Shown here piece by piece: positions 15,001 through 55,561 of a stretch of DNA of 55,990 nucleotides (its first letter is position 1; each line of letters starts with the position of its first letter). The notes under the pieces are model-generated. The model had not been told where the DNA came from and made no database searches. It was given only the letters and a program-made list of their open reading frames with translations. The stretch is taken from positions 1-55,990 of the IMG/VR virus record IMGVR_UViG_3300045988_068752. One strand, given 5' to 3'. The stretch comes from a virus. The translations under genes were made by a program, and so were the position numbers.

Positions 15001-16074
15001 TAGCAATACTTCAGTCGTTAACCATCCGTCTTTCAATGAGTCACGGAATGACTTGGTCATGTCTCGAGCATGACCCATCTTTTCTGCAGTTTGTGTCAAT
15101 CGGTCTTGGAATAGTTTACCACCCATACCCGCGTTAACTACAGAGTTCCAGTCTTGTAGACCTACACGACCAGCAGCCAACGCTTGAGACAATTGATACA
15201 TCGCCATACTAGCTTGTTGGGTGTTTGATCCAGAAGCAGCGGCCAAGTTGGAAATACCTTTAATAGCGATTGCTGATTTATCCAAGCTAACACCAGCAGC
15301 GGTAAATGTTCCGATGTTTCGAGTCATATCTGCAAACGAGTAAATGGTTTTATCAGCGTAGTCATTCAAGTCTTCCAACGCACCAGAAACTCTTCGCATA
15401 CGAACTGAACTATCTGGAATTTCCCATTCGGTATTCGTCATGATAGTTTGAACAGAACCAAGTTTGTTTTTGTACTCTTCTAAACCATCACCATATCCTC
15501 TAAAGAATTGTCCAGTAAAACTCATAGCTTTCTGAATCATTCCACCTAAGACATTACCCAAAGCAATATCCATGATAGATAGAGAATTTTGTACAGAACT
15601 AGCTGCTTTAGCGAAAGCATTAGATAGGGGACTTGCATCGAACCCCGACACTTTTGAATTCAAACCATCAATAGATTTAATGGAGTTCGGAAACCCTTGA
15701 TGGTTATCTGCCTTTTGGAAAATACCTTTCAACCTAGATAGAATTGAAGATGTAGTAGCTGTTTTGCTAGCGACATCTGTATTCATCCTATCAATAGATT
15801 GTCCAGCGCCAGACATATCAATACCTTTTGCGCTTCGGTTAAAAATTCCTTTAAGGCGAGATAGTAATCCCTCAGACTTTTGTGTCGATTTTGAAATTGT
15901 GTCTGTCATCTCTGACATGTCTGAGGCTATGTTTTTAGTCGCATCTTTACCATTGACTTTACCAAAAGCTTTCTTCATTCGTTCCAATGCGGCGACAGTG
16001 TCATCAGCATTCTTGGAAAAGCCTTTGTTATCTAAGGTGACCTTGGCGACTTTTTCATCTACATATCCAACCAT
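9097..16074 (-). CDS. Tail tape measure protein (2325 aa)
   Basis: The N-terminal region YADKTIYSFADMTRNIGTFTAAGVSLDKSAIAIKGISNLAAASGSNTQQASMAMYQLSQALAAGRVGLQDWNSV is typical of the TP901-type tape-measure domain. The remainder is very long, hydrophobic and repetitive. Confidence 0.9.
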   Translation of the reverse strand: MVGYVDEKVAKVTLDNKGFSKNADDTVAALERMKKAFGKVNGKDATKNIASDMSEMTDTISKSTQKSEGLLSRLKGIFNRSAKGIDMSGAGQSIDRMNTDVASKTATTSSILSRLKGIFQKADNHQGFPNSIKSIDGLNSKVSGFDASPLSNAFAKAASSVQNSLSIMDIALGNVLGGMIQKAMSFTGQFFRGYGDGLEEYKNKLGSVQTIMTNTEWEIPDSSVRMRRVSGALEDLNDYADKTIYSFADMTRNIGTFTAAGVSLDKSAIAIKGISNLAAASGSNTQQASMAMYQLSQALAAGRVGLQDWNSVVNAGMGGKLFQDRLTQTAEKMGHARDMTKSFRDSLKDGWLTTEVLLETLKEFSTDESMLDAATKVKSFGQLVDTVQEAIGSGWATTWEYFLGGFEEAKSMWTSIGDIVNPFINDDQGKYWDSVLEMERSLGNYRNAMLKVWKDLGGQEALFNTIKNSFEIVFKVMTKFREGFRSVIGDYKQSAQVLFGVTKAIEAISNSIKNNIFLYKTASSLGKLMGNVFKTLGWILSNIGAGFKTVGYSAGTILQPLSVAIDKISRFLESLRSASKYSTGWFYLGRAIANVFNIIGSLGRIALSIINSLLHVFFKMSSGTDIFARLMAILSIATSKLLYFVQSIESALNKSEGLPKMGAIFSKVFSTISSYASKVGNVIHQMMSAISNAFSSFKKDIDVNGFAPVISKMFKDMFSSVMKNINEFKQAISGVDIMSILKVAFGGLASFSIFKLFKKDKGGKKKSVPIIGPLLDALNDLIKKGDKIVDKVREILTGLKGAIESFTTGLKTGSLLMIATSITMLALSMKVLAGMSSDDLVRSVGAIATVSYILTGAMNRLSKLNNIPPGTTMNLIGFSFAVRMLAKAMAEVSKLSYEELMKGVGGISAASLVLLGSMKILSKIDEIKVNPLKLLGFVFALKILVSAMKDLVKYNPDELLRGVASIGTLMVMLAGSMGMMDGVEVKARTSMAMLSFVLSIKVLVSAIKSVADMKPETLSNSVLAIGTVMAALVGSMRALDGAKINTSAIFGMIVFVGSVSVLVKDLQAISAINVDALIPAVSILVTIMGSLVMAMHAVEGAKVNKSAMAAMIIFAGSVKVLTMSLTEISNIGSDKLVSSVQTLAILMGSLVAVTHLLDGAKVNLSAILTLITFSISVKVLVSSLTNIANIAPDRLEPAMNSLMGILIGLTAITVILTNMSGGILSAIGASMVLLSFVPVLLSIGFVMTQLAAIPWSGMQTALIGLGVTLGALVASVAILSTLGASSLVGAATLLMLSTSLIAIAVPLKMLGSMSLAQIGVGLVAIGGALAILLAAGALAAMVAPGLAILAVTLVAIGVAAIGIGAGALLGAMALDIFTKALMKLSMIGATAVVNIVKAFDAFVRSLAQNAPSIVSSLIKVVLTALNGLAVLIPEFVNFGLKLLLGLIEGITNNLPQLINAAVRLLTELATAIVNNMSIIINVAIDIAVTFIEKLAAGLVENKDRIISSLQSLFLSLSEIIVTIIKSLAGPVLSAIVEVLTPVRDFIITWIQEIGPVILPFFTAITDTLQVLFTTVSEIIRSLADVIISIIGGIETVVNGVVSIVTVIGETIKAFIQGVVDVINAIANVITATGDSIRYVLEGVDNIFVSFGNNVKTTLEGVSNVIKTFAEGVKTALEGVGKIFESIGTAIKTALDGVADVIRAVGDAAKSFGEGFKLFGEGVKLVGDYGASAATGLASLTVEVAKLGASAYAGNLQGFTKDIKDLATACTSLAGSVSGLSATATAMNMISVSASLLSGTLPTVNTAFITMSTSMTTLSTSITPVSTAFTGLIAPVTALMTTLTSVSAVFMNLNMQFQMLSLGMSALDASMLGIQNGVTLLSSSFSAMPAIIELFNQSLITTQQTMNTFFMELTNSSTGFATLSQAAMEGMMQMQMAVQTGMMNIQTVMLSGISTLAAAVFIGFTEVTNAVTMSMTSVSTAVQTGMLGVVTSISTSMQSVATATSTAFSGISTAIQTSISSISANINQGMSGVSQTITSRVHEIQNSFTQMNSTVNQIVSTMMAAMSSSISSGMSSSASRVSSGMSSIIGIVSSYSGSARSAGYNVGYYISAGVADGMNANMWAIESAANRIISKAREAARAAADIHSPSRLFAKDVGKFIPMGVAKGIGDAMPKMVDEVTDSFGKGFSDAADSVVSQGDVFANAVSDAVNSVSDMLDVAIDDMSYAPTITPVVDMSNLDKMKMSDYSLDYRGRISTPTPLYGVPQQSNTSTVVNNDNSKKEYSVNVNVDTGGKPVNTKELAREIQSHIKSFDDQSRRGKGEEVFW
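12409..13569 (-). repeat. Six to seven tandem ~59-aa hydrophobic coding repeats inside the tape measure gene
   Basis: TMP residues ~836-1222 repeat the pattern ..D.L...V..I.T......GSM....G.KVN.SA.......F..SVKVLV..L..I..I. One example is NVDALIPAVSILVTIMGSLVMAMHAVEGAKVNKSAMAAMIIFAGSVKVLTMSLTEISNI. Confidence 0.75.
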
Positions 16075-20236: not shown

Positions 20237-22102
20237 TTATCCCCCAGGAACTCCTGTACGAGCAGCTTCAGATCCAGCAGCAGATCCAGCAGCAGGTTTG
20301 AAGTATACCGCAGCTTTAGCACGAGTAAGCGCACCAGACAAACGAGTTTCAATCAAATATTTCTGTTTGTTGAAGTCGATGTCGAAGTGTTCAAATGTGT
20401 TAACTTCACCACCACGGTTTGTACCGATTTGGTAGTCAGCCAAGTTAACCATGATCATTTCATCTGGTTTCAAGAAGTTTGTTTCAACGATTTCAGCAAC
20501 ACCAAACAATGAAGCAAGGTATTCTTTGGTAGCTGGTTGTTGGCCACCGAATACCCATTGTTCGTTCTTGTTACGGAGGAAACGAAGTTTAGTCAAGAAT
20601 AGAGGGTTCACGTAAAGTGATGGAGTTCCTGAACCAAGCATCTTAGTTTTCTCAGTAGCAACAGTTTCGAACAAGTCAAGAAGAGCGTTAGGGTTGTAAG
20701 TTGCTTTGATTGTGTAGAAGTCTTCGTCTTTAGTGATTGGACGAATCTTGTCTTCTTTGATTTTAGCAGCATCACCAGTAGCACGTCCGTCAGATACAAG
20801 GATTGCTTGAGCGATTTCGTCGTTCAACTTGATGCGCATTTCTTGGTTGAAGAATGCAGCAACGTTCAATTGTTGACCGATATCAATTTGGTCATCACGG
20901 TCAATTGATTGTTTTTTATAGATTGTTTGTGGGTCTGTCTTACGAGACAAGAAAGAAATGATTTGTTCTTTCTTTTCAGTTCCCTTGATATAACCTTTAG
21001 CACGAAGTTGTTCATCAGTCAAGTCAGAAAGGTCTGTCATGATAGATTTAACAAATGCAGTTGGTACTTTTGTTACGCTTTTAAGAATGTGTTCAGTAGC
21101 AGTGTTAGGAGAGTAGATTACTTGTACTCCGCCTTGAAGCGCATGATCAGGGAAAAGTTTGTCAATGTTGTTCATTGAGTGTTTAAGAGTGTCGCCACCG
21201 TCCATTTCAGAAAGAACTTGACCTACTGTACGACCACTTTTTTTAGCGGTTTCCATAGCAGCTTCAAGTGAGTGGCGAATTTCTTGTTCGTCATTTACAT
21301 TTTGTCCAAATGCATTATAGTGCATGATTTGTCCTCCTAGGGCAGATTGTTCTAATTCGGTTTCTTCATCGTCATCATCGTATTCTTCGGCAAGTTCGCT
21401 CAAAACTTCACCAACACGTTCGTCTACAGCATCTTCAAAGTCTTCTGCAATTGCAGCTTCATGTTGTTCCAAAGCTTCGTTTACCGCAGCTTCTGTAAGA
21501 ATAGCGACTGCTTCTTGTTGATCTTCATCAAGAGTTCCAAGAACTCCATCCATGATATCAGTAGCTTCACCTTCGTCCGCGTGTTGAATACGGTCGAAGA
21601 GGCTAATACGTTCTTGTCCAAGCAAAACATCGTTTGCTTTATGTAAAAGTTCGTTACTTTCCATTATAATAGTTTCCCCTTCATTAGGATTATCGGAGTG
21701 CTGTAACACTTCCGTAATAACAGCGCCTGGATTGGCTCCGGCGACTACAAGTGATACTTCATAGATATTACCATGGATAACGTCATTTTGGGGCGTACGT
21801 TTGATACGATTTGCACCGATTGACATCGACCAGATATCTCCATGTTGTACGAGTTCTTTGGCGCTTTGGGCTTTTGGAGTATTGTTGAAATATCCTTCGC
21901 CGTAAACGCCGTCGTTCGCATGATGCAACATAACATGACCGATTACATTCTCTGGCGTACTATGATCATGTGACCAAACCAGAGGAACCTTCTGTCCGTT
22001 ATTGTCTTTAAACGCACCATGTCGAATAATAACACCGTCTGTACAACGAGTGTCGTTACGAGTTACATAACCCGCGAAATCATACTTGGGATGTTTATCC
22101 AT
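20237..22102 (-). CDS. Prohead protease - acidic scaffold-like linker - HK97-fold major capsid protein fusion (621 aa)
   Basis: The N-terminal ~140 aa look like an HK97-family (S78) prohead protease (AGYVTRNDTRCTDGVIIRHGAF...VPLVWSHDH...EVSLVVAGANPGA). An acidic block EEYDDDDEETELEQ follows. The C-terminal ~300 aa are capsid-like (...MIMVNLADYQIGTNRGGEVNTFEHFDIDFNKQKYLIETRLSGAL). Confidence 0.75.
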   Translation of the reverse strand: MDKHPKYDFAGYVTRNDTRCTDGVIIRHGAFKDNNGQKVPLVWSHDHSTPENVIGHVMLHHANDGVYGEGYFNNTPKAQSAKELVQHGDIWSMSIGANRIKRTPQNDVIHGNIYEVSLVVAGANPGAVITEVLQHSDNPNEGETIIMESNELLHKANDVLLGQERISLFDRIQHADEGEATDIMDGVLGTLDEDQQEAVAILTEAAVNEALEQHEAAIAEDFEDAVDERVGEVLSELAEEYDDDDEETELEQSALGGQIMHYNAFGQNVNDEQEIRHSLEAAMETAKKSGRTVGQVLSEMDGGDTLKHSMNNIDKLFPDHALQGGVQVIYSPNTATEHILKSVTKVPTAFVKSIMTDLSDLTDEQLRAKGYIKGTEKKEQIISFLSRKTDPQTIYKKQSIDRDDQIDIGQQLNVAAFFNQEMRIKLNDEIAQAILVSDGRATGDAAKIKEDKIRPITKDEDFYTIKATYNPNALLDLFETVATEKTKMLGSGTPSLYVNPLFLTKLRFLRNKNEQWVFGGQQPATKEYLASLFGVAEIVETNFLKPDEMIMVNLADYQIGTNRGGEVNTFEHFDIDFNKQKYLIETRLSGALTRAKAAVYFKPAAGSAAGSEAARTGVPGG

Positions 22103-25200: not shown

Positions 25201-25650
25201 CTATTTCTTAATTACTTTAACAAGTTGCGTTGTTAAAGGAGCATAATCCTTAGGTTTGTTTTTCATAAAGTCATTAGCGACAGTCTTAAGAGCTACACCA
25301 GCGACTGTAGGAACAACAAATCCTGCAGCTTTCTTAAGAGTACCTTTAACAGTAGGTCCGCTATTGGTCTTATTGATTTTGTTTGCTCTTTGGATTTGCT
25401 CTGCGAAATCATTCTCCATGCGTAATCTGTTAGTTGCATTTCGAAGATCTTTATCAGTCATAACATGTCGATTGTTATACTTTTTATTCCATTTACTATT
25501 TGCAGCTTTATTAGCCTTTTTAATTTTATTGCGGGAATCGTATCGGTTCCTAAGTTTTCGGAATCCCCATTTCATACCTTTGACACCGTGGTGTTCAATG
25601 GTATCTAGATCCGAAACAATAGCAATAAGTTTTTCATCATTTAGGCTCAT
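25201..25650 (-). CDS. GMKWG-motif family paralog (149 aa, basic)
   Basis: MSLNDEKLIAIVSDLDTIEHHGVKGMKWGFRKLRNR...; C-terminal hydrophobic patch AAGFVVPTVAGVALKTV. Confidence 0.8.
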   Translation of the reverse strand: MSLNDEKLIAIVSDLDTIEHHGVKGMKWGFRKLRNRYDSRNKIKKANKAANSKWNKKYNNRHVMTDKDLRNATNRLRMENDFAEQIQRANKINKTNSGPTVKGTLKKAAGFVVPTVAGVALKTVANDFMKNKPKDYAPLTTQLVKVIKK

Positions 25651-27459: not shown

Positions 27460-27611
27460 GGTCTACCTCCTTTCAGTGTATTTTGACCCCACTTTGGTAT
27501 CCTCGAATCTGAGTTTTAACCCACTCCGGGGATATTTTAGGGTGGTGGGGCGATGCAGGGGGGTGGGGTTTCTCTGCGGACCCTCCCCCTATGGGTCTGC
27601 AGTTACGTCTC
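27460..27611. other. GC-rich, G/C-tract-rich non-coding island (candidate cos/pac or late regulatory/leader region)
   Basis: 152 nt without a credible ORF in an AT-rich genome. G-tracts lie at 27528-27568 and a 10-bp hairpin at 27574-27602. Confidence 0.6.
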
Positions 27612-27933: not shown

Positions 27934-30579
27934 CTAGACTAGGTTCTGTACAGTAGACACACTAACGCCTAAAGCTTCTGCTACTTCAGCGTACGTTCTA
28001 CCGTTCTTAAGCATACCTTTAGCTCTGTTAGCTGTAGATAGACTGATAGAGTCTTCCTTCTTAGGAGTAGCTAACTGCTTAAGCCTATCTGAGTCTGAGA
28101 AGCGTATGATGTCAGTAAGCATCTTAGTACTCACAGCACCAGACTGAATAGCTTTCCATTCATCAGGCTCAATAGTAATCCTAGAAGACGCTCCGTCAGC
28201 ACCAGTACGTACACGAGCAGCTGCAATAGCCTGTTGTTTAAGCTTCTTGAGCTGGTCTTTCTGCATGTCAGGGTCACGTTTCTCAGCAATTACCTTGTTT
28301 GCAATGAGCTGTGCTTGACGTTCTCTAGGAGAGTTGGCTAAAGCAAGGTTTAGTTTGTTCTGTAGAGACTCAACTTGAGACTTGTACTGTAGTTTAGCCT
28401 CTTTAGACATGGTCATGTTAGGTGTTGTACTAACAACAGTGTTAGCTTTATCACGCATCTTACCAAGAGCGTTGATATAATCGCCATACATATTTTCGAT
28501 AGGGGTGCCTGAACCAAGTGTCTTAGCATCTTTAACCATTTCTACAACATGGTCTGTAGCAATAGTTCTAGATTTCTTAATCGTTGGTTTAAGTTTAGGA
28601 TTAGCGGCTAGTTCTTCTGGTGTACGATGATGCTCCCAGTATTCCAATGTTCGATGTTCTGTCTTAGACCTTGAAATAAGAGTAGAAGCTCCACCTTCCA
28701 TTTTACCAGTAATAACATTATAGTGTTGTTGATATGCTTTACGTAATTCAGGAATACGATTCTCTCTTTCGGAACGTAAATAATCTAAATTATGTTTTTC
28801 TGCATCAATAACCACCATTGAATGTTTAACGGCTCTAGCAATTTCAGATTGACTAGCACCTTTAAGAGTCATGTCGGTAATAAGGTTTGATACTTCGCCC
28901 ATTTGACGTTGCTTCATGGTCCAATTACCTTTTGAGTCACGAGTCAATAACTGTTTATTATCAGAATAATACTGTTTAGTATCAAAGTTCTTAAGCTCTT
29001 TCAATGAACGACTAGTTGCAATTCCGTTTTTATTATTAGGAATAACCATTACAGTGTCGCCATCAAAATCAGCACCAGATAATTTAGAAGCAACAGATGA
29101 ATCAATACCAACTGCATCTTTAGCGCCCTTCATAAATTTAGCTGGACCTTTTTCAAGTTTATTATTAACTGTTAATTCTGGTAATTCAAAAATACCACCA
29201 TGAGGATATCGAACAAGAACTACTTTCTCTCCATTCTTAAAGTTAGGAGCATATATTTCGTTAGCTTTGATACCAGACAATGGCAAAATAACTTGACCTT
29301 TCATTCTATCGAAGCCAGTTAATTTAAGATTATGACGTTTTGTTGTCAAGCCATCAGCAAAATCTTGCATGAGTGCTTTCTTAATAACTGGGTTTGTCAA
29401 ATTATTAATTTCGTCAAACTCTTTTTGTAATTTTTCATACGTAGTTTGAATACGACCTTTAACAAGAGCAGGTGGTTGTTTAGAAACAAACTGAGAAGAT
29501 AAGGTCTTAGACCAAGTTCCCCAGTCTCCTTCTTCATTAACTTTATTTATAGCGCCTTTTTGTCCATTGGCTTTGATTTGAGCACCAAATGGATTATCAG
29601 GGTCATCTTTTAAAGGTTTAAGAACGTCTTCTTTAGGAGTTCCTTTTTTCTTGTTGGTATTGAAAATAACATCGACACCTTTAGGAAAATCTTTAGGGTC
29701 TCCATAAACAGCCATACCTTTAAGATAATGAGTTCCACCTACACCAATACGAACCTGAGCGTATCTAGAACCACCAAGGTCTAAATCTTTGACCCCTGGA
29801 CGAAGTTCCATAACTCCATCTTTATCGGTACCACCTTGCTCGTCGTATCGAATATTAACGCGTTTCCAATCAATATGTTGGATTGGTTTTAAACCTAATT
29901 TAGTTGAACCGTCTTCGGCTTTATATAGATTAGGAGGAGCGATTTCGTGTTTGTGTTCACGCACAACATCAGGATTAGGTTCTTTTGTAAGAACTTTCAT
30001 TTCTACCCAGTGATTGTCATTGGTAGCATTCTTAACATATACTTTATGCATATGATAACCTTCTGCTTCTAATTGTTGAACAGCACGTTTAAGAGTATTT
30101 TCTTTGATACCTAATTGTTGTGCTGAACCAAGACCTACGTCCAAATATGGATTCTCTTTAATAAGAGCTTTAAGGTCACTCTTAATATTTTCCATTCTTG
30201 TAATGTTGTTCTTAACTTGTTCATTAAGATACATACGAACAGACGACTCAGGAATACCAGTCCTACGAGATATCTCAGTTGGACCATGTCCTTTTTCGTT
30301 TAGTTCAATTACCATAGAATGATTTCTTAGACGAATGGTTTGGTTGGCAATTGTGTTACGAGCACGAAATTCACTTGTCGTGAGTCCTAGTTTTGTAGCG
30401 ATTTGAGTATCGCTTAAACCCGTCTTACGATATTTGGCGACAGTATCGGACCATGATGTAGCCCGTTGATAAGAATTCTCACCAGAACCCCACGCATATC
30501 GTCCACTGTGTGGGATATTCCCTTGGTGAGGAGTACCTTTATGCAGAATAATATCCTCATAAGCTTCTTCTAAATTCAT
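27934..30579 (-). CDS. YonO/RDR-like two-barrel single-chain RNA polymerase with N- and C-terminal HTH modules (881 aa)
   Basis: VVLVRYPHGGIFELPELTV...VASKLSGADFDGDTVMVIPNN (DFDGD encoded at 29056..29070) matches the beta-prime/RDR catalytic double-psi barrel. Upstream, FGAQIKANGQKGAINKV resembles the beta-type barrel. HTH-like segments lie at aa 54-71, aa 97-118 and the last 22 aa. Confidence 0.7.
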   Translation of the reverse strand: MNLEEAYEDIILHKGTPHQGNIPHSGRYAWGSGENSYQRATSWSDTVAKYRKTGLSDTQIATKLGLTTSEFRARNTIANQTIRLRNHSMVIELNEKGHGPTEISRRTGIPESSVRMYLNEQVKNNITRMENIKSDLKALIKENPYLDVGLGSAQQLGIKENTLKRAVQQLEAEGYHMHKVYVKNATNDNHWVEMKVLTKEPNPDVVREHKHEIAPPNLYKAEDGSTKLGLKPIQHIDWKRVNIRYDEQGGTDKDGVMELRPGVKDLDLGGSRYAQVRIGVGGTHYLKGMAVYGDPKDFPKGVDVIFNTNKKKGTPKEDVLKPLKDDPDNPFGAQIKANGQKGAINKVNEEGDWGTWSKTLSSQFVSKQPPALVKGRIQTTYEKLQKEFDEINNLTNPVIKKALMQDFADGLTTKRHNLKLTGFDRMKGQVILPLSGIKANEIYAPNFKNGEKVVLVRYPHGGIFELPELTVNNKLEKGPAKFMKGAKDAVGIDSSVASKLSGADFDGDTVMVIPNNKNGIATSRSLKELKNFDTKQYYSDNKQLLTRDSKGNWTMKQRQMGEVSNLITDMTLKGASQSEIARAVKHSMVVIDAEKHNLDYLRSERENRIPELRKAYQQHYNVITGKMEGGASTLISRSKTEHRTLEYWEHHRTPEELAANPKLKPTIKKSRTIATDHVVEMVKDAKTLGSGTPIENMYGDYINALGKMRDKANTVVSTTPNMTMSKEAKLQYKSQVESLQNKLNLALANSPRERQAQLIANKVIAEKRDPDMQKDQLKKLKQQAIAAARVRTGADGASSRITIEPDEWKAIQSGAVSTKMLTDIIRFSDSDRLKQLATPKKEDSISLSTANRAKGMLKNGRTYAEVAEALGVSVSTVQNLV

Positions 30580-33157: not shown

Positions 33158-33204
33158 CAAAAAAAAGAAAAAGGGAGAACAAATCAGCAGAATTTTGTTC
33201 TTCC
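33158..33204 (-). terminator. Strong intrinsic terminator/attenuator immediately downstream of promoter-motif copy a
   Basis: 11-bp stem (33173-33183 with 33194-33204, one mispair) and a 10-nt loop, followed on the minus strand by TTTTTCTTTTTTTT. Confidence 0.7.
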
Positions 33205-33206
33205 TC

Positions 33207-33236
33207 TCTATTATGTGCCATGTAAATCCTGCGAAT
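33207..33236 (-). promoter_or_regulatory. Conserved promoter-like motif, copy a
   Basis: Minus strand: CGCAG GATTTACATGGCA CATAAT AGA. Confidence 0.55.
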
Positions 33237-36200: not shown

Positions 36201-37143
36201 GAGCCATCAATTGATTATATTTCGTATGACTAACTTTCTGTCCACTAGGATTTACAACAACGGCTCGTCGAGTAATACCCGAGTCAACGTTACGAACTTT
36301 ATAACGTTGGTTTGATGCTGTAATTAACAATCCATTAAAAATGACAGAATAAGGTTCCTTAAATTTCTTATTGACCTGAATAATTTCATGACTCGTCAAT
36401 TTCAATAACGGGGTATCGTTTTGAATATGACTGATATCAGTATCCTCATCAATTAACAATGGTACCTCTTGAACTTGTCCTGTTGCAAACTGGTCATTGC
36501 TTGTGAGCAGTTTCAAGTCAATAGGGGCACAGTAATCTTGGAATAACATTTTAAATATCTTTAGGACAGTTCCTTTACCGCTACCTTTCGAACCATACAA
36601 ATACATGAATTTTTCAATCTTATACATGTTGTTCGTTAATAATGCACCCATAAACCACAATATCTTATCGAGTTCTTGTGGCATATATAAAGTTCCAACC
36701 AATTCAGTAAAGGCGGGAGCTTCTCCTTCTGTTGGTGTATAATTTAATTGAGTAGTAGCATAGTCATGTCGCTTCATCTTGTGGTCAGAGAACAATATCT
36801 TTTGGTTGAAAGAAATATCGCCAGACTCACAAGCTTTACAGAAATCTTGAAATAGCCTGAACTTACCAACAGATGCTCTTCTAATTTCTTTTACATCAAT
36901 TCGTAACCCAGGTCTACCCTCTTCCAGTTCTTTAGCTCTACGCCAAAGTAAAGTGTCAATATCGTAAAATAAGTTCTTCTGTTGGGTATCCCAATAAGAA
37001 CCATTCCAATACGCATAGAATTTGGAGCCTTTAACAACTAAATCCTTAGTATCTCCGAAAATAAAATCTGGAGATACTTCATAATCTACCGTTCGGTTGT
37101 TTGATGTGAACTTTTTGATAGATACGTCTAAAAAATCCACCAA
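33265..37143 (-). CDS. Replicase fusion: SF3 (D5/P4-type) helicase + AEP primase-polymerase + family B DNA polymerase (1292 aa)
   Basis: Walker A GSKGSGKGT (36568..36594) with LLIDED. AEP motifs VIDFDLKD (DFD at 35608..35616) and SKSGQGIHLHY. PolB motifs: ExoI FFDIEV (34963..34980), ExoII GFNNRRYDNHIL, ExoIII YCVNDVDATEKLF, motif A LLDVESMHPNS, motif B KIVINSVYG, motif C HIKTDS (33889..33900). Confidence 0.85.
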   Translation of the reverse strand: MVDFLDVSIKKFTSNNRTVDYEVSPDFIFGDTKDLVVKGSKFYAYWNGSYWDTQQKNLFYDIDTLLWRRAKELEEGRPGLRIDVKEIRRASVGKFRLFQDFCKACESGDISFNQKILFSDHKMKRHDYATTQLNYTPTEGEAPAFTELVGTLYMPQELDKILWFMGALLTNNMYKIEKFMYLYGSKGSGKGTVLKIFKMLFQDYCAPIDLKLLTSNDQFATGQVQEVPLLIDEDTDISHIQNDTPLLKLTSHEIIQVNKKFKEPYSVIFNGLLITASNQRYKVRNVDSGITRRAVVVNPSGQKVSHTKYNQLMAQIKFELPYIAHIAINRFEELGFDYFDEYFDIEMAEQTDHIFDFIRSNAIYMQDGISLRQLGELYKEYLEEMGWKTDGYKAVIKREALRYFDTMVKDSAIDGTRVKNYFKGFRWNVAFPEGLVSTTNPDEMIVPDNWLKFNYNNRVFNRLAADYPAQLAQRNGNPMMKWDDVRTTLKDIHTDKLHWVKVPLNHIVIDFDLKDENGEKNLDLNIEAASKFPPTYAEVSKSGQGIHLHYIYDGNVNELDNLVDEHIEIKVYKGNASLRRIDKGSNNLQPSHISSGLPLKERKVKMYEDVKEITYTEKTLRKFVKRQLGLIEGEKPSHPNTKPTIDWIADQIQKAYDMGLEYDLTDLKHDVFLRALRSTNNREYCLAVFQKIPWSSIRDDNGALEDKLTSGTKIYPKEELVFFDIEVYPNLFVVVWKKYGEDEFVKWVNPTPDQIEHLLSFPLVGFNNRRYDNHILYARLLGCDNLELFRQSYRIVNEKNAKSGMYAAAYELSYTDIYEYSQKKQSLKRWEVDLGIKHVEMEIPWDQPVPDELVPVVVDYCVNDVDATEKLFDAIYADYVAREILATISKGSMNATNNQLTAKFIFGDDPNPQEKFNYVKLDTIFPGYKYEFGKSYYRGYETGEGGFVYAEPGVYKNIALLDVESMHPNSLINMNYFGPYTQRYADLLKVRVLLKHNKVDEVKQMFNGILVPFLDNPEYRKPLVTALKIVINSVYGMTSAKFDNKFKHPDNIDNIVAKRGALFMVDLKFAIEEQGYKVCHIKTDSVKIPDADEKIIKFVEDFGKLPKYNYKFEHEHTYKRMALINNAVYIAQLEDDEWSPTGAEYANTYLLKRVWTKEELVDRDFFITKQSKGHIYLGDEFVGKVGSIYASKSGRECMWTEDNENFKSIAGTKGYLFKQTSEFDYEDVDFSYYDKIAVDGLKKIIKVGDITQIVDNMPKDYVDALELQDKYPDAQTISINHGTLKVRKPETA

Positions 37144-37479
37144 TATACCTCCATTTCTACTATCACCCTTTTTTACCCCATTTTGGCCCTATCTCCCATT
37201 GTATATATATACTAGTTCATTTTCAACTCATCCCAGTATACAATAGGAAAAGGGGCCGTTTTTGGGGGAGAAATAGGGGATTTTAATAAAATTTTCACCT
37301 TTTTCTCATTTTTTTACATCAATATTATAGGTCACCTAGAAATACCCCAAATTTCCTCAGATTTTTTGGGGGATAGTTTTAAGCCAAAATTAGCCATTTT
37401 TGACCAATTTTCCTACAATATCAATGCAAATTCCTACAGTCACCCGAAGTTTTTCTGGGCATTTTCCATAGAAATATAC
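37144..37479. other. 336-bp non-coding region upstream of the replicase gene (candidate origin and/or regulatory hub)
   Basis: No ORF. It holds repeated C4-5/G4-5 tracts, direct repeats TTTTTGGGGGA (37259.. and 37364..), the AT palindrome gtatatatatac (37201..37212) and a sigma-A-like TTTGGG-16-TATAAT on the minus strand. Confidence 0.6.
37408..37439 (-). promoter_or_regulatory. Degenerate possible 11th copy of the promoter-like motif
   Basis: Minus strand: TGTAG GAATTTGCATTGA TATTGT AGGAAA. The 13-nt spacing is the same, but both anchor elements are mutated. Confidence 0.3.
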
Positions 37480-37736: not shown

Positions 37737-38663
37737 TTACTTAGCGTCCTTTTCTTTAGGAGGTTCTTGTGTAGTAAGAGGCTCGGTGGTAATAAATCCA
37801 TCTGGTTCAACCTTGAATGCTGGTTGTTTGTCAAGCTTACCATCCGGAAGAAGTTTGTACCAACCATCATTATATTTAATGAATTGGTCGGACTTCATAT
37901 CGCCATCTTTAGGATCTAGGTAGTACCAGTTGTCGAAGTATTTAACCCAACCGGTCTTCATCGCTCCGTCTTTGTCGAAGTAGTACCATTTACCACCAAT
38001 CTTGACCCAAGACGTAGCCATATAACCTTTGGCGTTAAACCAATACCACTTACCATCAGTATGTTTCAACCAGCGGTCAGTGTATGCATATCCATCTTTG
38101 TCGAAGTAGAACCATGATTTATTTTCTGCAACGTATTCGAATCGGTTTGTTGGGTATGACCCGTTTTGACGTACATACCACCAACCAGTGTTATTTTTCT
38201 TCCAACCTGGTTCAACTGGCTTAGCGGTACCAGCTCCTGTGAGACGATATACGTAGTAATATGGCTTACCAGCATATACCCAGCGTTCGTCGTGGTCGTT
38301 TACTGAGATACCATTATATGCCCAGTTACAGTGGATGATATTATCGCTATCAACAAAGATACCAGTGTGGCCTCCAGCACCTGCTGACTGCCCTTTACGT
38401 CCCCAGATGAAGATATCGCCACGTTGAGCATCCCAAGGTGTGTTCTCGGCAATAAGCTCGAAGCCGTTGTCAAGCAACCATTGGTGTTGGTATTCAGTGT
38501 TTACTGCCCAACCAGCAGATACGGCTCCGCCTGAGCGTAGTGCGTAATAAATAGATGATGAACAGTCGTATGAGTCAGGCCCATCACGGTGCTCCATACT
38601 GTAATATACTTGTCCTTCACGGTTTTTCATCCAAGCAAGTGCTGTTTCTAAATTAATTGTCAT
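37737..38663 (-). CDS. Endolysin: Amidase_5/CHAP-like N-terminal domain + choline-binding-type (YG/CW_binding_1) repeats
   Basis: The N-terminus [63 protein letters not shown] resembles streptococcal/lactococcal phage lysins. The C-terminus has repeats such as [56 protein letters not shown] at 38663 follows AGGAGA. Confidence 0.9.
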
Positions 38664-38868
38664 TTTGTTTCTCCTGTCTTGTAAATATTTTGTATTTGTA
38701 ATGTTCAGTTGGGAAATGATGTTTAACGCCATTTGACTCAACTATAATAAATTCTTGTGGATTCATAGCATGCATACTAATATAAACATCCACAACGTCG
38801 TAATATAAAGATTCGTTTAGGTTGCGTTTATCTTGCACAACCACAATTTGTTTACTATCTAAAATCAT
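38653..38868 (-). CDS. Hypothetical protein (71 aa)
   Basis: ORF upstream of the endolysin; no TM segment, so not an obvious holin. Confidence 0.55.
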
Positions 38869-47574: not shown

Positions 47575-47604
47575 TTTCATTATGACCTATGTAATTTCTG
47601 CGGA
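47575..47604 (-). promoter_or_regulatory. Conserved promoter-like motif, copy b
   Basis: Minus strand: CGCAG AAATTACATAGGT CATAAT GAAA. Confidence 0.6.
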
Positions 47605-49970: not shown

Positions 49971-50000
49971 TTTCATTATAGCATAGGGAAATCCTGCGCA
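49971..50000 (-). promoter_or_regulatory. Conserved promoter-like motif, copy j (overlaps the last codons of 49976..50335)
   Basis: Minus strand: CGCAG GATTTCCCTATGC TATAAT GAAA. Confidence 0.6.
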
Positions 50001-51687: not shown

Positions 51688-51716
51688 TTTCATTATAGGA
51701 TGTGTAAAAACTGCGT
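51688..51716 (-). promoter_or_regulatory. Conserved promoter-like motif, copy c
   Basis: Minus strand: CGCAG TTTTTACACATCC TATAAT GAAA. Confidence 0.6.
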
Positions 51717-52296: not shown

Positions 52297-52325
52297 TTTC
52301 ATTATAGGGTATGTAATTACTGCGA
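52297..52325 (-). promoter_or_regulatory. Conserved promoter-like motif, copy d
   Basis: Minus strand: CGCAG TAATTACATACCC TATAAT GAAA. Confidence 0.6.
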
Positions 52326-52763
52326 TTAAGTTAACTTCCTATAGTCACCAATAAGTTTATCAGGAAAATATTCCCCATCGTTATTGATATCCAATATAGG
52401 CGCTTTCTCTCCTTCATCTAACATATCAGCAACTGTGTGTGAATATGCCTTGATTGTTGCGAAGAACATAGGTGCGTCCTTCTTGGAAATATAAACCGTC
52501 TGTGCAGTATGTGCTCGCTTAGGTTTAGGGTTGTGAATACGGATACCTTCAAAATAACTTTTATCTGGATCGATAAATCCAGACATAATTACTGGTACGT
52601 CGTTAGCTACCAAATTCACATACACGATATACTCTCCAATCTTCTCATCGAAATATGAGTGAATGTATTTAAAAAGAAGAGAATGTACATTTGGCATTCT
52701 CTTAGTAACTCCGAATTTCCTTCCTGTCTTTTTAACAGTTTTCCTTTTCTTGCTAATAGGCAT
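52326..52763 (-). CDS. Hypothetical protein (145 aa) with basic N-terminus
   Basis: ATG at 52763 follows AAGGAGG; encodes MPISKKRKTVKKTGRKFGVTKR... Confidence 0.6.
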   Translation of the reverse strand: MPISKKRKTVKKTGRKFGVTKRMPNVHSLLFKYIHSYFDEKIGEYIVYVNLVANDVPVIMSGFIDPDKSYFEGIRIHNPKPKRAHTAQTVYISKKDAPMFFATIKAYSHTVADMLDEGEKAPILDINNDGEYFPDKLIGDYRKLT

Positions 52764-52799
52764 AGCAAACCTCCTTAAATGATTTTGAAAAAAAAAAAA

Positions 52800-52890
52800 C
52801 GAAGGAGTGAATATGCGGCATCGCACCGCACTTCCATTTCTGGATGCTTTCCTAAAACCTACTAAGCATATTCTTATGGCTTATTCCTTC
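52800..52890 (-). ncRNA. Candidate ~90-nt structured small RNA (third promoter-RNA-oligoT cassette)
   Basis: It begins at the end of motif copy e. A GAAGGA/TCCTTC closing stem (52885-52890 with 52801-52806) is followed by G+T12. An internal TGCGG-TGCGATG-CCGCA hairpin has 5 bp and a 7-nt loop. No ORF and no RBS. Confidence 0.35.
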
Positions 52891-52916
52891 ATTATAATGT
52901 ATGTAAATCCTGCGAA
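52887..52916 (-). promoter_or_regulatory. Conserved promoter-like motif, copy e
   Basis: Minus strand: CGCAG GATTTACATACAT TATAAT GAAG. Confidence 0.6.
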
Positions 52917-52925
52917 ATTCAAAAA

Positions 52926-53040
52926 AAAAGGGTGCCGGATTCGAACCGACGACAGCCATCCGTATTCACGTTATCCAATGTGGGGAATACGGGCGCTCTA
53001 ATATGGATAAATATCCACACACCACTGAGCTAAGCCCTTT
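52926..53040 (-). ncRNA. 114-nt tRNA-like RNA with expanded D-loop and anticodon arm
   Basis: Minus strand: AAAGGGC TTA GCTC AGTGGT[GTGTGGATATTTATCCATAT]TA GAGC G CCGTATTC[17-nt loop]GAATACGG ATGGCTGTC GTCGG TTCGAAT CCGGC ACCCTTT + T-run. The D-arm, T-arm and acceptor pairing are canonical. About 40 nt are extra. Confidence 0.5.
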
Positions 53041-53067
53041 TCATTATAGCGTATGTAATTTCTGCGA
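53038..53067 (-). promoter_or_regulatory. Conserved promoter-like motif, copy f
   Basis: Minus strand: CGCAG AAATTACATACGC TATAAT GAAA. The terminal AAA are the first three nt of the tRNA-like acceptor stem. Confidence 0.6.
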
Positions 53068-53071
53068 AAAA

Positions 53072-53145
53072 AAAGAATAGAGTGGAGTTGAACCACGTCG
53101 CCCCTCCTGAATAATCAGGATGCTCTCCCGCTGAGCTATATTCTT
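53072..53145 (-). tRNA. tRNA gene (about 73 nt) with non-canonical anticodon loop; identity unassigned
   Basis: Minus strand: AAGAATA TA GCTC AGCGGGA GAGC A TCCTG ATTATT CAGGA GGGGCGAC GTGG TTCAACT CCAC TC TATTCTT + T8. The 7-bp acceptor stem is perfect and the D-arm and T-loop are canonical, but the anticodon loop has only 6 nt. Confidence 0.6.
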
Positions 53146-53172
53146 CATTATATGGTATGTAAATCCTGCGGA
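53143..53172 (-). promoter_or_regulatory. Conserved promoter-like motif, copy g
   Basis: Minus strand: CGCAG GATTTACATACCA TATAAT GAAG. The terminal AAG are tRNA positions 1-3. Confidence 0.6.
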
Positions 53173-53174
53173 TT

Positions 53175-53199
53175 AAAAAAGAGAGGGAATTAACCCTCT
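53175..53199 (-). terminator. Intrinsic terminator ending the 53207..53623 cassette
   Basis: AGAGGG/CCCTCT stem (53182-53187 with 53194-53199) followed by CTTTTTT on the minus strand. Confidence 0.65.
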
Positions 53200-53651: not shown

Positions 53652-53681
53652 TTTCATTATAGGGTTTGGAATTCCTGCGAA
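53652..53681 (-). promoter_or_regulatory. Conserved promoter-like motif, copy h
   Basis: Minus strand: CGCAG GAATTCCAAACCC TATAAT GAAA. Confidence 0.6.
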
Positions 53682-53883: not shown

Positions 53884-53913
53884 TTTCATTATGTGGTATG
53901 TATTTTATGCGAA
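53884..53913 (-). promoter_or_regulatory. Conserved promoter-like motif, copy i (most divergent: CGCAT)
   Basis: Minus strand: CGCAT AAAATACATACCA CATAAT GAAA. Confidence 0.5.
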
Positions 53914-53986: not shown

Positions 53987-54400
53987 TTATTTACCAGTAT
54001 ATGAATTATAATATTTGGTCGCTAACGAACGATGTCCTAAATATAGATCATAATTATCATCTATCTTTTTCTTTAGCTTTTTGGCGACTTTTTGTTTAAT
54101 CTGCTTGCCTTTCTTTTTCGCTTTCTCGGATTTTTCTCTATAAAGATAAGCATTCACGTGAGATTTATAAAGCGCTTTATCTGCTGCAGATTGATGTTGA
54201 GCAGCCATACCTAACTTGTAGTGAGGATGATTTTGGTCGAATACTGCAGGTAACGTATTTGAAGCATGACGGTCTGATTCTTTATAGCTGGAGTATAAAT
54301 CTTTAAGTTGTTTATGACGACTCTTAATACCCCAACGCATACCTTTAATCCCATAGTGCTCAATAACATCTTGGGAGGATTGAATAGAAATATAATTCAT
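53987..54400 (-). CDS. GMKWG-motif family paralog (137 aa, basic)
   Basis: MNYISIQSSQDVIEHYGIKGMRWGIKSRHKQ... Confidence 0.8.
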   Translation of the reverse strand: MNYISIQSSQDVIEHYGIKGMRWGIKSRHKQLKDLYSSYKESDRHASNTLPAVFDQNHPHYKLGMAAQHQSAADKALYKSHVNAYLYREKSEKAKKKGKQIKQKVAKKLKKKIDDNYDLYLGHRSLATKYYNSYTGK

Positions 54401-54415
54401 TTATACCCCCCCTAA

Positions 54416-54958
54416 TTAATAACGTCCGCCAGCTAAAGTTGCAGCTTTCTTACGTGCTGTTTTAGCGTTTGCAATATCTCTGTTAAAATTATTATTCAGA
54501 TCTTTGTAGGCAGCAGACATTTTCTTACGTGCCATTGTCTGACGTTCTCGATAATCTTTACGAGATTCTCCTTGAGATTTTTTACGCTTACTGAAATAGG
54601 CATCTTGACTGTATTTATTAAAGATCTTATCATCACCATCTCCATGACGGGATAGCGCCGCATTCCTATCTTTCTTATATTTTTTATTAGCTTTGACCAT
54701 ATCGTTAACATAACGATTACGGAATTCCAATGACCGTGTTGTACCCATTAAGGTTCCCATTTTTGATCGTCTTCTTGATTCTTTAATGGACCTATCAGTT
54801 AGAATAGGGTGTCGTACAGAGTTGATAGCTGTTCTGCCTGCAGCAGCGCCCCAACGTTTCATACGCTGGCCCCACTTCATTCCTTTGACTCCGTGGTGTT
54901 CGATAACATCTTGAACGTTATCTGTGTGGTAAATTTCATCTTCATTAATAATAATCAT
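54416..54958 (-). CDS. GMKWG-motif family paralog (180 aa, basic)
   Basis: MIIINEDEIYHTDNVQDVIEHHGVKGMKWGQRMKRWG... Confidence 0.8.
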   Translation of the reverse strand: MIIINEDEIYHTDNVQDVIEHHGVKGMKWGQRMKRWGAAAGRTAINSVRHPILTDRSIKESRRRSKMGTLMGTTRSLEFRNRYVNDMVKANKKYKKDRNAALSRHGDGDDKIFNKYSQDAYFSKRKKSQGESRKDYRERQTMARKKMSAAYKDLNNNFNRDIANAKTARKKAATLAGGRY

Positions 54959-54964
54959 AATTAT

Positions 54965-55561
54965 TTATCCTTTCAATCCAGCTTTTCTAGCCATTCTTTG
55001 GTATTCAGCAGCTCGGCCGCCATACATACTTGCATTAGCGCCATAATTATTAATGAACGAGTTTGACATAGTACGTTCATGAACATAATGGCCAGATTTA
55101 TCCATCAAATCTTTTCGACTCGATCTATATAATTCTTCCCTATATTTCATTTTATCACGAAGAGTTCTAGGGTCATTTTTACCATATTTGGATTTGGATT
55201 CTTTCCATTTGTTTCTAGCCTCGTGATAAGCTCCATCATAAGGTTTACGAACTTGCTTATATGCGTCTTTATAAGAAATTCCTTTTTTATTCGATAGAAT
55301 TTTAGCTTGTTGCTTTTCAATCTTTCTACCGTTTTGATAACGACGATATTGTCCATCTAGACCTTGGAACGACCCAGCAAATTCATCCATAAATCGGTTC
55401 ATAGCAGTATCAGACATACGTTTGTTTAATTTGGTCAGTTTTCTTTGAGCTCTAGCAGCGCCTCTTGAAGATACAACCCTTCGCTGGCCCCACTTCATGC
55501 CCTTAATCCCGAAGTGTTCGATAACATCTTGGGAAGATTGAATAGAGTAATATTCAGTCAT
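54965..55561 (-). CDS. GMKWG-motif family paralog (198 aa, basic)
   Basis: MTEYYSIQSSQDVIEHFGIKGMKWGQRRVVSS... Confidence 0.8.
   Translation of the reverse strand: MTEYYSIQSSQDVIEHFGIKGMKWGQRRVVSSRGAARAQRKLTKLNKRMSDTAMNRFMDEFAGSFQGLDGQYRRYQNGRKIEKQQAKILSNKKGISYKDAYKQVRKPYDGAYHEARNKWKESKSKYGKNDPRTLRDKMKYREELYRSSRKDLMDKSGHYVHERTMSNSFINNYGANASMYGGRAAEYQRMARKAGLKG

Follow-up and report, generated by a model that had tools for sequence, protein, structure and literature searches.

We analyzed a cluster of small RNA units in a 55,990-nt stretch of viral DNA, IMG/VR virus record IMGVR_UViG_3300045988_068752 (the whole stretch is called the window here), in which the minus strand carries all genes. 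From position 53170 to position 52788, three units, each made of a promoter motif, a structured RNA and a T-run, follow one another head to tail on the minus strand. The original prediction, made from the window sequence alone, had described three autonomous cassettes; the coordinates were checked on the minus strand, and comparison with related phages bore this description out. The features at the locus are as follows.

53175 to 53199, minus strand: upstream terminator, hairpin AGAGGG-TTAATT-CCCTCT plus T6; ends the open reading frame (ORF) 53623-53207 and is followed by AATC and then promoter g
53147 to 53170, minus strand: promoter g, CGCAGGATTTACATACCATATAAT, with 0 mismatches to the cross-phage pattern given below
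53067 to 53146, minus strand: unit 1 RNA; putative +1 G at 53146, tRNA-like core 53145-53073, U8 end 53074-53067
53043 to 53066, minus strand: promoter f, CGCAGAAATTACATACGCTATAAT
52921 to 53042, minus strand: unit 2 RNA, tRNA-shaped; putative +1 G at 53042, about 114 nt and then U9 (52929-52921)
52891 to 52914, minus strand: promoter e, CGCAGGATTTACATACATTATAAT
52788 to 52890, minus strand: unit 3 RNA; putative +1 G at 52890, a 90-nt RNA ending in TCCTTC, then G 52800 and T12 (52799-52788)
52326 to 52763, minus strand: 145-amino-acid (aa) ORF (phrog_1494) with a basic N-terminus (MPISKKRKTVKK...); its ribosome-binding site (RBS) and ATG come directly after the U12, and it has no promoter of its own

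Each T-run had been proposed to lead into the CGCAG of the next motif. This was found for unit 1, whose T8 (53074-53067) abuts the CGCAG of promoter f without a gap, whereas the upstream T6 reaches promoter g through AATC, and the T-run of unit 2, which is T9 (52929-52921) and not T10, reaches the CGCAG of promoter e through GAATTT. The G plus T12 (52788-52799) at the end of unit 3 had been given exactly. A 64-aa ORF on the plus strand (52807-53001), which overlaps units 2 and 3, was considered as a gene and rejected, since relatives have 5-, 15- and 20-nt insertions or deletions in that stretch.

The promoter motif, CGCAG-N13-TATAAT-GAA, occurs 10 times in the window (at 53911, 53679, 53170, 53066, 52914, 52324, 51715, 49998, 47602 and 33233), always on the coding strand and with about 0 copies expected; the hexamer is TATAAT or CATAAT in all 10. 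Searching with the 27-nt motif and up to 3 mismatches gave 8 matches, all on the minus strand, versus 0.00 expected, and the looser pattern CGCRNNNNTTACNNNNNNTATART with up to 1 mismatch gave 9 versus 0.12 expected. Three copies precede the cassette RNAs, one precedes a short hairpin RNA, and six lie 10 to 30 nt before an RBS and ATG. The copies outside the three units are listed below.

53888 to 53911, minus strand: promoter copy, CGCATAAAATACATACCACATAAT, then GAAAAGGAGG...ATG; the Shine-Dalgarno (SD) sequence begins 3 nt past the motif
53656 to 53679, minus strand: promoter copy preceding ORF 53623-53207
52301 to 52324, minus strand: promoter copy of the mRNA type, from the motif scan
51692 to 51715, minus strand: promoter copy of the mRNA type, from the motif scan
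49975 to 49998, minus strand: promoter copy of the mRNA type, from the motif scan
47579 to 47602, minus strand: promoter copy of the mRNA type, from the motif scan
33159 to 33233, minus strand: tenth promoter copy (33233-33210, CGCAGGATTTACATGGCACATAAT) and a hairpin RNA of about 50 nt, AGAACAAA...TTTGTTCT, ending in T5CT8

The tenth copy (33159-33233) lies between the DNA polymerase gene and the gene for the single-stranded DNA-binding protein, so that a promoter is followed at once by a terminator and then by the gene.

Scanning IMG/VR with the motif yielded at least 120 related loci (given L numbers below), mostly on contigs of 54 to 59 kb, which hold at least 428 copies of the motif, at least 357 of them unique. 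Among the matches listed, the bases after TATAAT are G in 96%, A in 95% and A in 87% of the copies. About three quarters of the copies in the listed loci precede an RBS and ATG, and the remainder precede structured RNAs that end in a T-run. Nearly always, the motif has a terminator T-run before it and an RBS or the 5' helix of an RNA at a fixed short distance after it. In many mRNA-type units (e.g., L026 13399, L062, L095 and the window's 53911), there is complementarity between the initial 8 nt of a transcript (GAAAGAAA) and the U-tract in its own terminator (TTTCTTTT); these mRNAs could also have paired 5' and 3' ends, or the complementarity could be a by-product of a purine start and a U-run.

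The position of the RNA 5' ends was judged from the helices that close the RNAs. At least 122 unique units in the listed loci consist of the promoter, a closing helix and a T-run, and in 88 of 122 the helix begins with the G right after TATAAT. Compensatory 5'/3' variants were found across unrelated RNA families: GAGAAG/CTTCTC, GAAGAG/CTCTTC, GAGAGGG/CCCTCTC and GAAGGA/TCCTTC, and further GAAGAATA/TATTCTTT and GAAGAAGC/GCTTCTTC. To control for the complementarity that GAAA and a U-run provide for free, the 5' and 3' ends were re-paired among 41 RNA clusters. The mean helix length from offset 0 was 7.0, compared with 5.42±0.15 in the permuted pairs. In a set picked without any helix criterion, the mean was 6.36 compared with 4.91±0.23, none of 1,000 permutations was as high, and the excess faded or vanished when the start was forced 4 nt or more downstream; the non-coding filter used for this set was too permissive on RBS-like words, and units of non-coding RNA (ncRNA) were undercounted in it.

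A second indication came from the mRNA-type units. In 8 of 190 units with a strong SD sequence, including the one behind the window's 53911 promoter, the SD sequence starts only 2 to 4 nt after TATAAT, and the start site must therefore be at the end of the motif. Given that the G after TATAAT is the first base of the closing helix, and that this helix covaries with what precedes the T-run, the 5' end of the RNA appears to abut the motif. Transcription would start at the G after TATAAT, or 1 to 3 nt upstream inside AAT; by inspection, several RNAs have an A between the closing C and the U-run that is able to pair with the last T of TATAAT.

The T7-style start at the motif end, which had been suggested from the spacing in the window, thus agrees with both the closing-helix covariation and the SD positions, and the comparative evidence also supports a primary transcript that would already carry its closing or acceptor stem and need little or no 5' processing. 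The other option left by the original prediction, that the acceptor stems were drawn wrongly, was rejected, because closing helices covary from the first base after TATAAT in many RNA families. One detail was corrected: the G of the motif had been taken as acceptor position 1, and the Rfam alignment of unit 1 starts the acceptor stem at the A after it. The G itself is position -1/0 in that alignment; alternatively, it is paired as G.U to the U-run, as in the minimum free energy (MFE) fold.

At their other ends, the closing helices stop 0 to 3 nt before, or run into, T-runs of T5 to T13. A helix with a U-tract of 5 to 13 nt within 0 to 3 nt is also the arrangement of bacterial intrinsic terminators, and the neighboring mRNA units end in textbook hairpins with T-runs. 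The cassettes differ in that the "hairpin" is the closing helix of an entire multibranched RNA of 55 to 120 nt, and in that the 5' strand of this helix would be the very first transcribed sequence. The closing helix with the directly following U8 to U12 may therefore be read as a terminator of the intrinsic type. Pol III small-RNA genes, including those for VA and EBER, are compact and give 5'-triphosphate RNAs with paired ends and a 3' oligo-U from termination at a T-run. The proposal that a closing stem plus oligo-U ends each unit, functionally as in Pol III genes, is supported by the comparison of sequences; the likeness is functional only, as the cassettes are from a bacterial virus, have upstream promoters only, and probably need the closing helix for termination.

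We then considered the RNA products. Unit 1 has an 8-bp closing helix, canonical D and T arms, and an "anticodon" stem of 5 to 6 bp with a loop of 4 to 6 nt. It aligns over its full length with the Rfam tRNA model RF00005 at 24.1 bits (E 0.013), short of the gathering score of 29, with one loop nucleotide lost and an insertion in the T stem. ARAGORN reports 53146-53074 as "tRNA-???". The MFE folds of units 1 and 2 are cloverleaves, and that of unit 1 has its closing helix from the first G. The closing helix of unit 2 is GAAAAGGG/CCCUUUUU; a 20-nt hairpin is inserted in its D loop (absent from the relative L021), its 8-bp "anticodon" stem bears a 17-nt loop (4 nt in L014), and its T arm is GUCGG-UUCGAAU-CCGGC.

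Both units have an acceptor stem, a D arm with G18G19 and a T arm with a GTTCRANNC loop. Neither has a 7-nt anticodon loop on a 5-bp stem with a stable identity: unit 1 has a loop of 6 nt, unit 2 one of 17 nt and relatives have loops of 4 to 8 nt, and CAT, TGT and CGT swap on the same body. The loops of the unit 1 family are ATTATT, AATACT, CATCAT, CATTGT, TAAA and GAAA, and among relatives both partners of pairs in the "anticodon" stem (UA/CG, CG/GC, UA/AU/GC) and the T stem have changed so that pairing is kept. The genes encode no CCA, and the stems of units 1 and 2 run into U8 or U9. As judged from these sequences, units 1 and 2 are anticodon-less tRNA mimics that keep the elbow and an acceptor-like helix, and they cannot decode because there is no functional anticodon loop. 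The earlier description of two tRNA-type units as tRNAs was therefore not retained.

Unit 3 is closed by GAAGGA/UCCUUC, followed by a cloverleaf-like four-way junction with a P2 helix (GAAUAU/AUAUUC), a D-like arm (GCUU/AAGC), a short GNRA hairpin and, near the 3' strand, a T-loop-like hairpin (GCGG-UGCGAUG-CCGC). In this model, 96.8% of the cells are paired, compared with 37 to 51% for slid partners; covariation was seen in two helices and no variation in two others, and the evidence is thin because only two lineages are available. Units 2 and 3 have no Rfam match at E ≤10. At Rfam gathering thresholds, nothing was found in the window, 16 related loci and 3 reference phages, except tRNA for a few of the tRNA-like RNAs. 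MAFFT/RNAalifold missed the terminal helices because family members vary in length at both ends, and these helices were analyzed by custom scripts.

Among all loci, ARAGORN found 9 unique tRNA-like RNAs that abut the promoter and end in a T-run, and the anticodons of all 9 are aberrant or inconsistent. The canonical tRNAs in the related contigs L017 and L107 (Lys-TTT, Ile-TAT, Thr-TGT and Leu-TAA) have neither the promoter nor a T-run. The nearest deposited genome, Caudovirus D_HF5_2C from saliva, whose phage polymerase (described below) is 83% identical to that of the window, holds one cassette only at the syntenic site, an unannotated one with the same promoter, a tRNA-like RNA and T8. The cassette RNAs are unannotated in OR148986 (a syntenic 8.5 kb) and in NC_010576 (20000-55597). 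Lactococcus phage 1706 (L122) has two unannotated promoter-driven ncRNA genes, at 11077-11196 and 15737-15806, directly before ORFs (orf43 and orf51). Its tRNA-like RNA behind the promoter scores 38.5 bits as an Rfam tRNA; it is anticodon-less, having a 6-nt loop on a stem of 3 bp, and is carried by a long extension stem formed by the 5' and 3' parts.

Other cassette RNAs were seen in relatives. In L032, L068, L099, L110, L111 and L113, a tRNA-like RNA of the D_HF type is joined to another module, about 85 nt long (AATAGGTAC...GGTGCGATTCCGGG...GCCTAT), which has its own T-loop-like hairpin, precedes one long T-run (T10 to T18), and stands alone behind the promoter in L058. A further recurrent family of about 110 to 125 nt, with common AAGACACGAA...TTTTCGTTGG and without an Rfam match, occurs in L002, L007, L060 and L072. 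The 145-aa ORF family directly follows the RNA array in relatives too, whichever RNA family precedes it. Only 16 homologues of this ORF were found, its AlphaFold2 model had a predicted local distance difference test (pLDDT) score of 48.7, too poor for a fold search, and no Pfam domain was found in it; its product could be a partner of the cassette RNAs.

The nearest known analogues are the tRNA-like domains of the bacterial Y RNAs YrlA and Yrn1. These small RNAs likewise imitate tRNA in its acceptor, D and T arms, and some are phage-encoded. In the tRNA-like domain of Yrn1, the "anticodon" stem is 5 bp long and its loop 6 nt (PMC4201824), which matches unit 1 in size, and the 1706 homologue resembles a Y RNA in that it tops a long stem of 5' and 3' sequence. 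In contrast to Y RNAs, the ends of the cassette RNAs form a short acceptor-like helix followed by oligo-U. The cassette RNAs gave no Rfam Y-RNA match, the Ro-binding motif GNCGAAN0-1G was not seen in them by eye, and no gene for Rsr (TROVE), RtcB, a CCA-adding enzyme or a ligase was found among 30 ORFs searched with Pfam and 6 with PHROGs, some small ORFs being unscanned. Membership in the Y RNA family fails for want of an Rsr gene, a Ro-binding motif and an Rfam match.

To address which enzyme may read the motif, we examined the polymerase genes of the window.

27934 to 30579, minus strand: gene for an 881-aa single-chain two-barrel RNA polymerase with N- and C-terminal helix-turn-helix (HTH) domains and the loop GADFDGD at aa 502-508

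The protein matches phrog_4291 ("RNA-dependent RNA polymerase") with 1009 bits and Pfam RdRP with 6e-5, below the Pfam cutoff, and its C-terminus matches Pfam Sigma70_r4_2 and other HTH domains. Searching PDB chains by sequence, both with the protein alone and with a profile of 5 sequences, gave only HTH matches and a weak beta' match (E about 0.5). An AlphaFold2 model built from 44 diverse homologues reached a pLDDT of 82.8, and Foldseek with this model returned QDE-1 (8e-11), the non-virion RNA polymerases of Thermus phage (8f72 and 8f5m, 3-4e-8), plant RDR2 and, weakly, Pol I and Pol II. By sequence and by model, the 881-aa protein is a two-barrel QDE-1/YonO-like enzyme fused to HTH domains; its family comprises 1852 clusters at 50% identity. 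The enzyme to which the data point is not a T7-like one. Among the scanned window ORFs there is no gene for a T7-like (Pol A family) RNA polymerase, and the two-barrel single-chain enzyme is the sole polymerase-like gene besides DNA polymerase.

The pattern CGCR-N4-TTAC-N6-TATART has 9 sites in the window, 8 in Lactococcus phage 1706, 9 in Arthrobacter phage Circum and 6 in Streptomyces phage Scap1, all on the coding strand of each genome and with at most 0.12 expected by chance. The GC content is 45% in Circum and 61% in Scap1. Directly after the hexamer, the window has GAAr, phage 1706 has A-GAAAG, Circum has GAG or AGA, and Scap1 has GAGACCCCTAC. All three phages share the window's 881-aa polymerase at 39 to 44% identity, and one IMG/VR locus combines the exact motif of the oral phages with a polymerase only 41% identical. 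A preprint used the putative polymerase to define one supercluster for these phages; promoters go unmentioned in it, and it describes the Streptomyces cluster as free of tRNA genes (10.1101/842583).

In representative bacterial and archaeal genomes (596 Gb), the exact motif was found in 14 stretches only, all on contigs of metagenome-assembled genomes (MAGs), several of them phage-sized and one binned as Streptococcus; the motif is therefore not a host promoter class. Because the motif co-occurs with the polymerase in distant phages and is nearly absent from bacterial genomes, the phage's own 881-aa polymerase is most likely its reader, and the host sigma-A holoenzyme is a less likely one.

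The motif was compared with promoters of phage polymerases. Like T7 and SP6 promoters, it is one contiguous block of about 24 bp, with an AT-rich TATA-type segment ending at -1, a conserved purine start within the motif and a conserved initial transcribed sequence, and it ends at the putative +1, would require no 5' trimming and occurs in many copies on one strand. The purine start GAAG is as in SP6; the sequence resemblance of the motif to the SP6 promoter is weak. The candidate enzyme differs, being two-barrel, RdRP/YonO-like and HTH-bearing and not of the Pol A family. The two-barrel polymerases gp96 and gp64 of phage P23-45 each have their own promoter motif upstream of starts mapped by Cappable-seq (PMC10770324). 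They share the fold class with the 881-aa protein (Foldseek 8f72 and 8f5m, 3-4e-8) and differ from it in promoter motif and in the N- and C-terminal HTH domains found here ("HTH" has 0 occurrences in PMC10770324), and the start here is a putative one.

Taken together, the observations are probably best explained by three autonomous ncRNA genes within 385 bp, served by a phage promoter and the phage polymerase and yielding tRNA mimics. The anatomy of the cassettes, their recurrence, the 5'/3' covariation, the link between motif and polymerase across phyla and the non-decoding tRNA-like shape are documented by comparative sequence analysis. Each gene would be driven by the 24-bp phage-specific promoter CGCA-N4-TTAC-N6-TATAAT, with the HTH domains, one of them sigma-region-4-like, perhaps on CGCA and TTAC, and with TATAAT as the melted segment. 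The purine-rich first 6 to 10 nt of the transcript (GAAGA...) would pair with the pyrimidine-rich segment made last, and the primary transcript would be the finished end-paired RNA, with no 5' leader and only an oligo-U tail. The mimics would occupy or titrate a host factor that reads the tRNA elbow or acceptor, such as a tRNA-targeting defense toxin or a tRNA processing or modifying enzyme; that the RNAs are a trans-acting decoy or sponge for a tRNA-binding factor is a weakly supported guess. The last cassette may also throttle read-through into the downstream ORF.

Several points weigh against this explanation. The start site and the 3' ends of these phage RNAs are deduced from sequence. The first G pairs with U in 26 of the 41 clusters, and GAAA/U-run pairing gives part of the 5'/3' complementarity for free; there are few independent lineages per RNA family, which makes the covariation within each family thin. 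Co-occurrence of motif and polymerase would also fit a different conserved factor of the phage (for example, an activator or a sigma-like protein) that acts on the host polymerase. Hairpin plus U-run terminators work on host polymerase as well. The polymerase gene lies about 17 to 25 kb downstream, at the right genome end. A 152-nt gap at 27460-27611, GC-rich and rich in C-runs (..CCCCACCCCCCTGCATCGCCCCACCACCC..), between the polymerase gene region and the ORF in the small-terminase position, is probably the cos/pac region, which would place the polymerase gene at the right end as in 1706, Circum and Scap1. A polymerase packaged in the virion, fused to the tape-measure protein as in P23-45, was looked for and not found, the tape-measure protein lacking a DxDGD motif and having tape-measure domains only; this raises a problem of timing, that is, of the presence of the enzyme when the early-looking genes are read. 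A 337-nt non-coding gap upstream of the DNA polymerase gene (37143-37479), which holds CCCCCAAAAA-type repeats, contains the best sigma-70-like site of its region (TTGAAA-17-TACAAT, 37226-37198). This site could drive early, host-read expression of the polymerase operon; the gap could be an origin or such a promoter and is a lead only.

Among the other explanations, the one that survives best, unlikely as we consider it, is that the units are cis-acting devices, structured leaders and terminators that attenuate or insulate the next gene and stabilize 5' ends, with a tRNA shape that is incidental or inherited. The ORF behind unit 3 has an RBS and lacks a promoter, and 22 of 39 ncRNA clusters in relatives likewise stand directly before an RBS and ATG without a promoter, which fits a leader or attenuator role too. 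Both ncRNA cassettes of 1706 precede ORFs, and only a hairpin terminator stands between the tenth motif copy and the gene for the single-stranded DNA-binding protein. However, a promoter and not a gene follows units 1 and 2, and the same was found in 14 of the 39 clusters. Different RNA families occur at the same site before the same ORF family, which argues against a dedicated leader. In addition, the tRNA elbow nucleotides are conserved (TAGCTCAGNGGGAGAGC, GGTTCRANTCC) and the stems change by compensation.

Less probable again is an ordinary host sigma-A promoter, perhaps with a phage activator at CGCAG/TTACA, from which transcription would start about 7 nt downstream, so that the RNA would lack what appear to be the 5' strands of its closing helices. 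TATAAT is a perfect sigma-A -10 hexamer, the region looks early and is distant from the phage polymerase gene, and the neighboring mRNA units carry the classic hairpin and T-run terminators described above. However, there is no -35 hexamer at 16 to 18 bp and no TG extension: the TTACA element is only 5 bp from the hexamer, and the positions 17 bp upstream are T-rich or variable. Matches of the sigma-70 type were not enriched in scans of the DNA (43 versus 38 expected, and 44 versus 40 expected). The GAA right after the hexamer is conserved at 87 to 96%. As judged from the closing helices, which covary from offset 0 above permuted controls, and from SD sequences 2 to 4 nt after the hexamer, the start does not lie 5 to 9 nt past the -10; an RNA 5' end that abuts the motif is a misfit with sigma-70 geometry, and such a start site argues against any sigma-70-family mechanism. 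The same 24-bp architecture is moreover found in phages of hosts as different as Lactococcus, Arthrobacter and Streptomyces, and in bacterial genomes the motif is absent save on the phage-like MAG contigs.

We regard it as very improbable that the motif is an RNA-processing or DNA-level signal and that the small RNAs are cut from a long transcript. Strand-specific intergenic repeats could be processing sites; against this, the motif has no internal dyad, it is flanked by a T-run before and by an RBS or an RNA 5' helix at a fixed short distance after, and an AT-rich TATAAT with a purine start behind it is typical of DNA that is melted for initiation. Finally, units 1 and 2 can hardly be genuine decoding tRNAs (frameshift or suppressor tRNAs with odd loops or an intron): ARAGORN does call unit 1 a tRNA and relatives Met, Thr, Gly or Ile, and tRNA scores above the Rfam threshold were obtained for two relatives and for the RNA of 1706, but the loops are 4, 6, 8 or 17 nt, the "anticodon" (CAT, TGT, CGT) varies between near-identical bodies, unit 1 stays below 29 bits and unit 2 has no Rfam match, a U-run stands after the stem where no CCA is encoded, and the canonical tRNAs of related contigs are organized differently.

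Phage-specific promoters for phage polymerases, intrinsic terminators and tRNA mimics are already known kinds of elements. What appears to be new is a defined, phylum-spanning promoter for the HTH-fused two-barrel polymerase family, the use of the closing helix of a whole RNA as terminator so that the primary transcript is the finished RNA, and a recurrent class of anticodon-less phage tRNA mimics. The searchable literature gave no account of such a promoter for the HTH-fused family or of these RNAs. For YonO of SPbeta, the promoter was stated to be undetermined, and the promoter of YonO-type two-barrel polymerases is an explicitly open question (PMC5467207). The present result is a concrete 24-bp consensus with a fixed geometry that is common to phages of Streptococcus-like, Lactococcus, Arthrobacter and Streptomyces hosts. 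If correct, it would provide a compact orthogonal set of polymerase, promoter and terminator for Gram-positive bacteria and would account for the transcription of thousands of unannotated phage genomes. The cassettes would form a hidden layer of phage ncRNA genes that current annotation misses, and the target of the anticodon-less mimics could be a new point of phage-host conflict. A broader view, which we offer tentatively and consider doubtful as a whole, is that CGCR-N4-TTAC-N6-TATART-G is an undescribed promoter class of HTH-fused YonO/QDE-1-like polymerases that predates the split of Actinobacteria and Firmicutes phages, and that it makes processing-free, closing-helix-terminated, trans-acting tRNA mimics that act on host tRNA-binding machinery, e.g., as decoys for tRNA-targeting immunity.

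As judged by Pfam and PHROGs, the window also encodes a terminase, a portal, a protease-capsid fusion, a 2325-aa tape-measure protein and a primase-polymerase, and it is from a siphophage of about 56 kb, probably one that infects oral streptococci. The lysin (37737-38741, minus strand) combines Amidase_5 with choline-binding repeats. These repeats, one related 57-kb contig that was binned with Streptococcus, and the salivary origin of the closest genome suggest a host of the mitis group of Streptococcus, which has choline in its wall. At 20237-22102 (minus strand), a single 621-aa ORF joins a prohead protease (Peptidase_S78) to a C-terminus resembling a major capsid protein. Three consecutive ORFs of 137, 180 and 198 aa (53987-55561, minus strand), located 5' of the first promoter copy, share an N-terminal DUF7211 motif, which is also carried by a 149-aa ORF adjoining the terminase (25201-25650, minus strand); the four look like one paralogous family.

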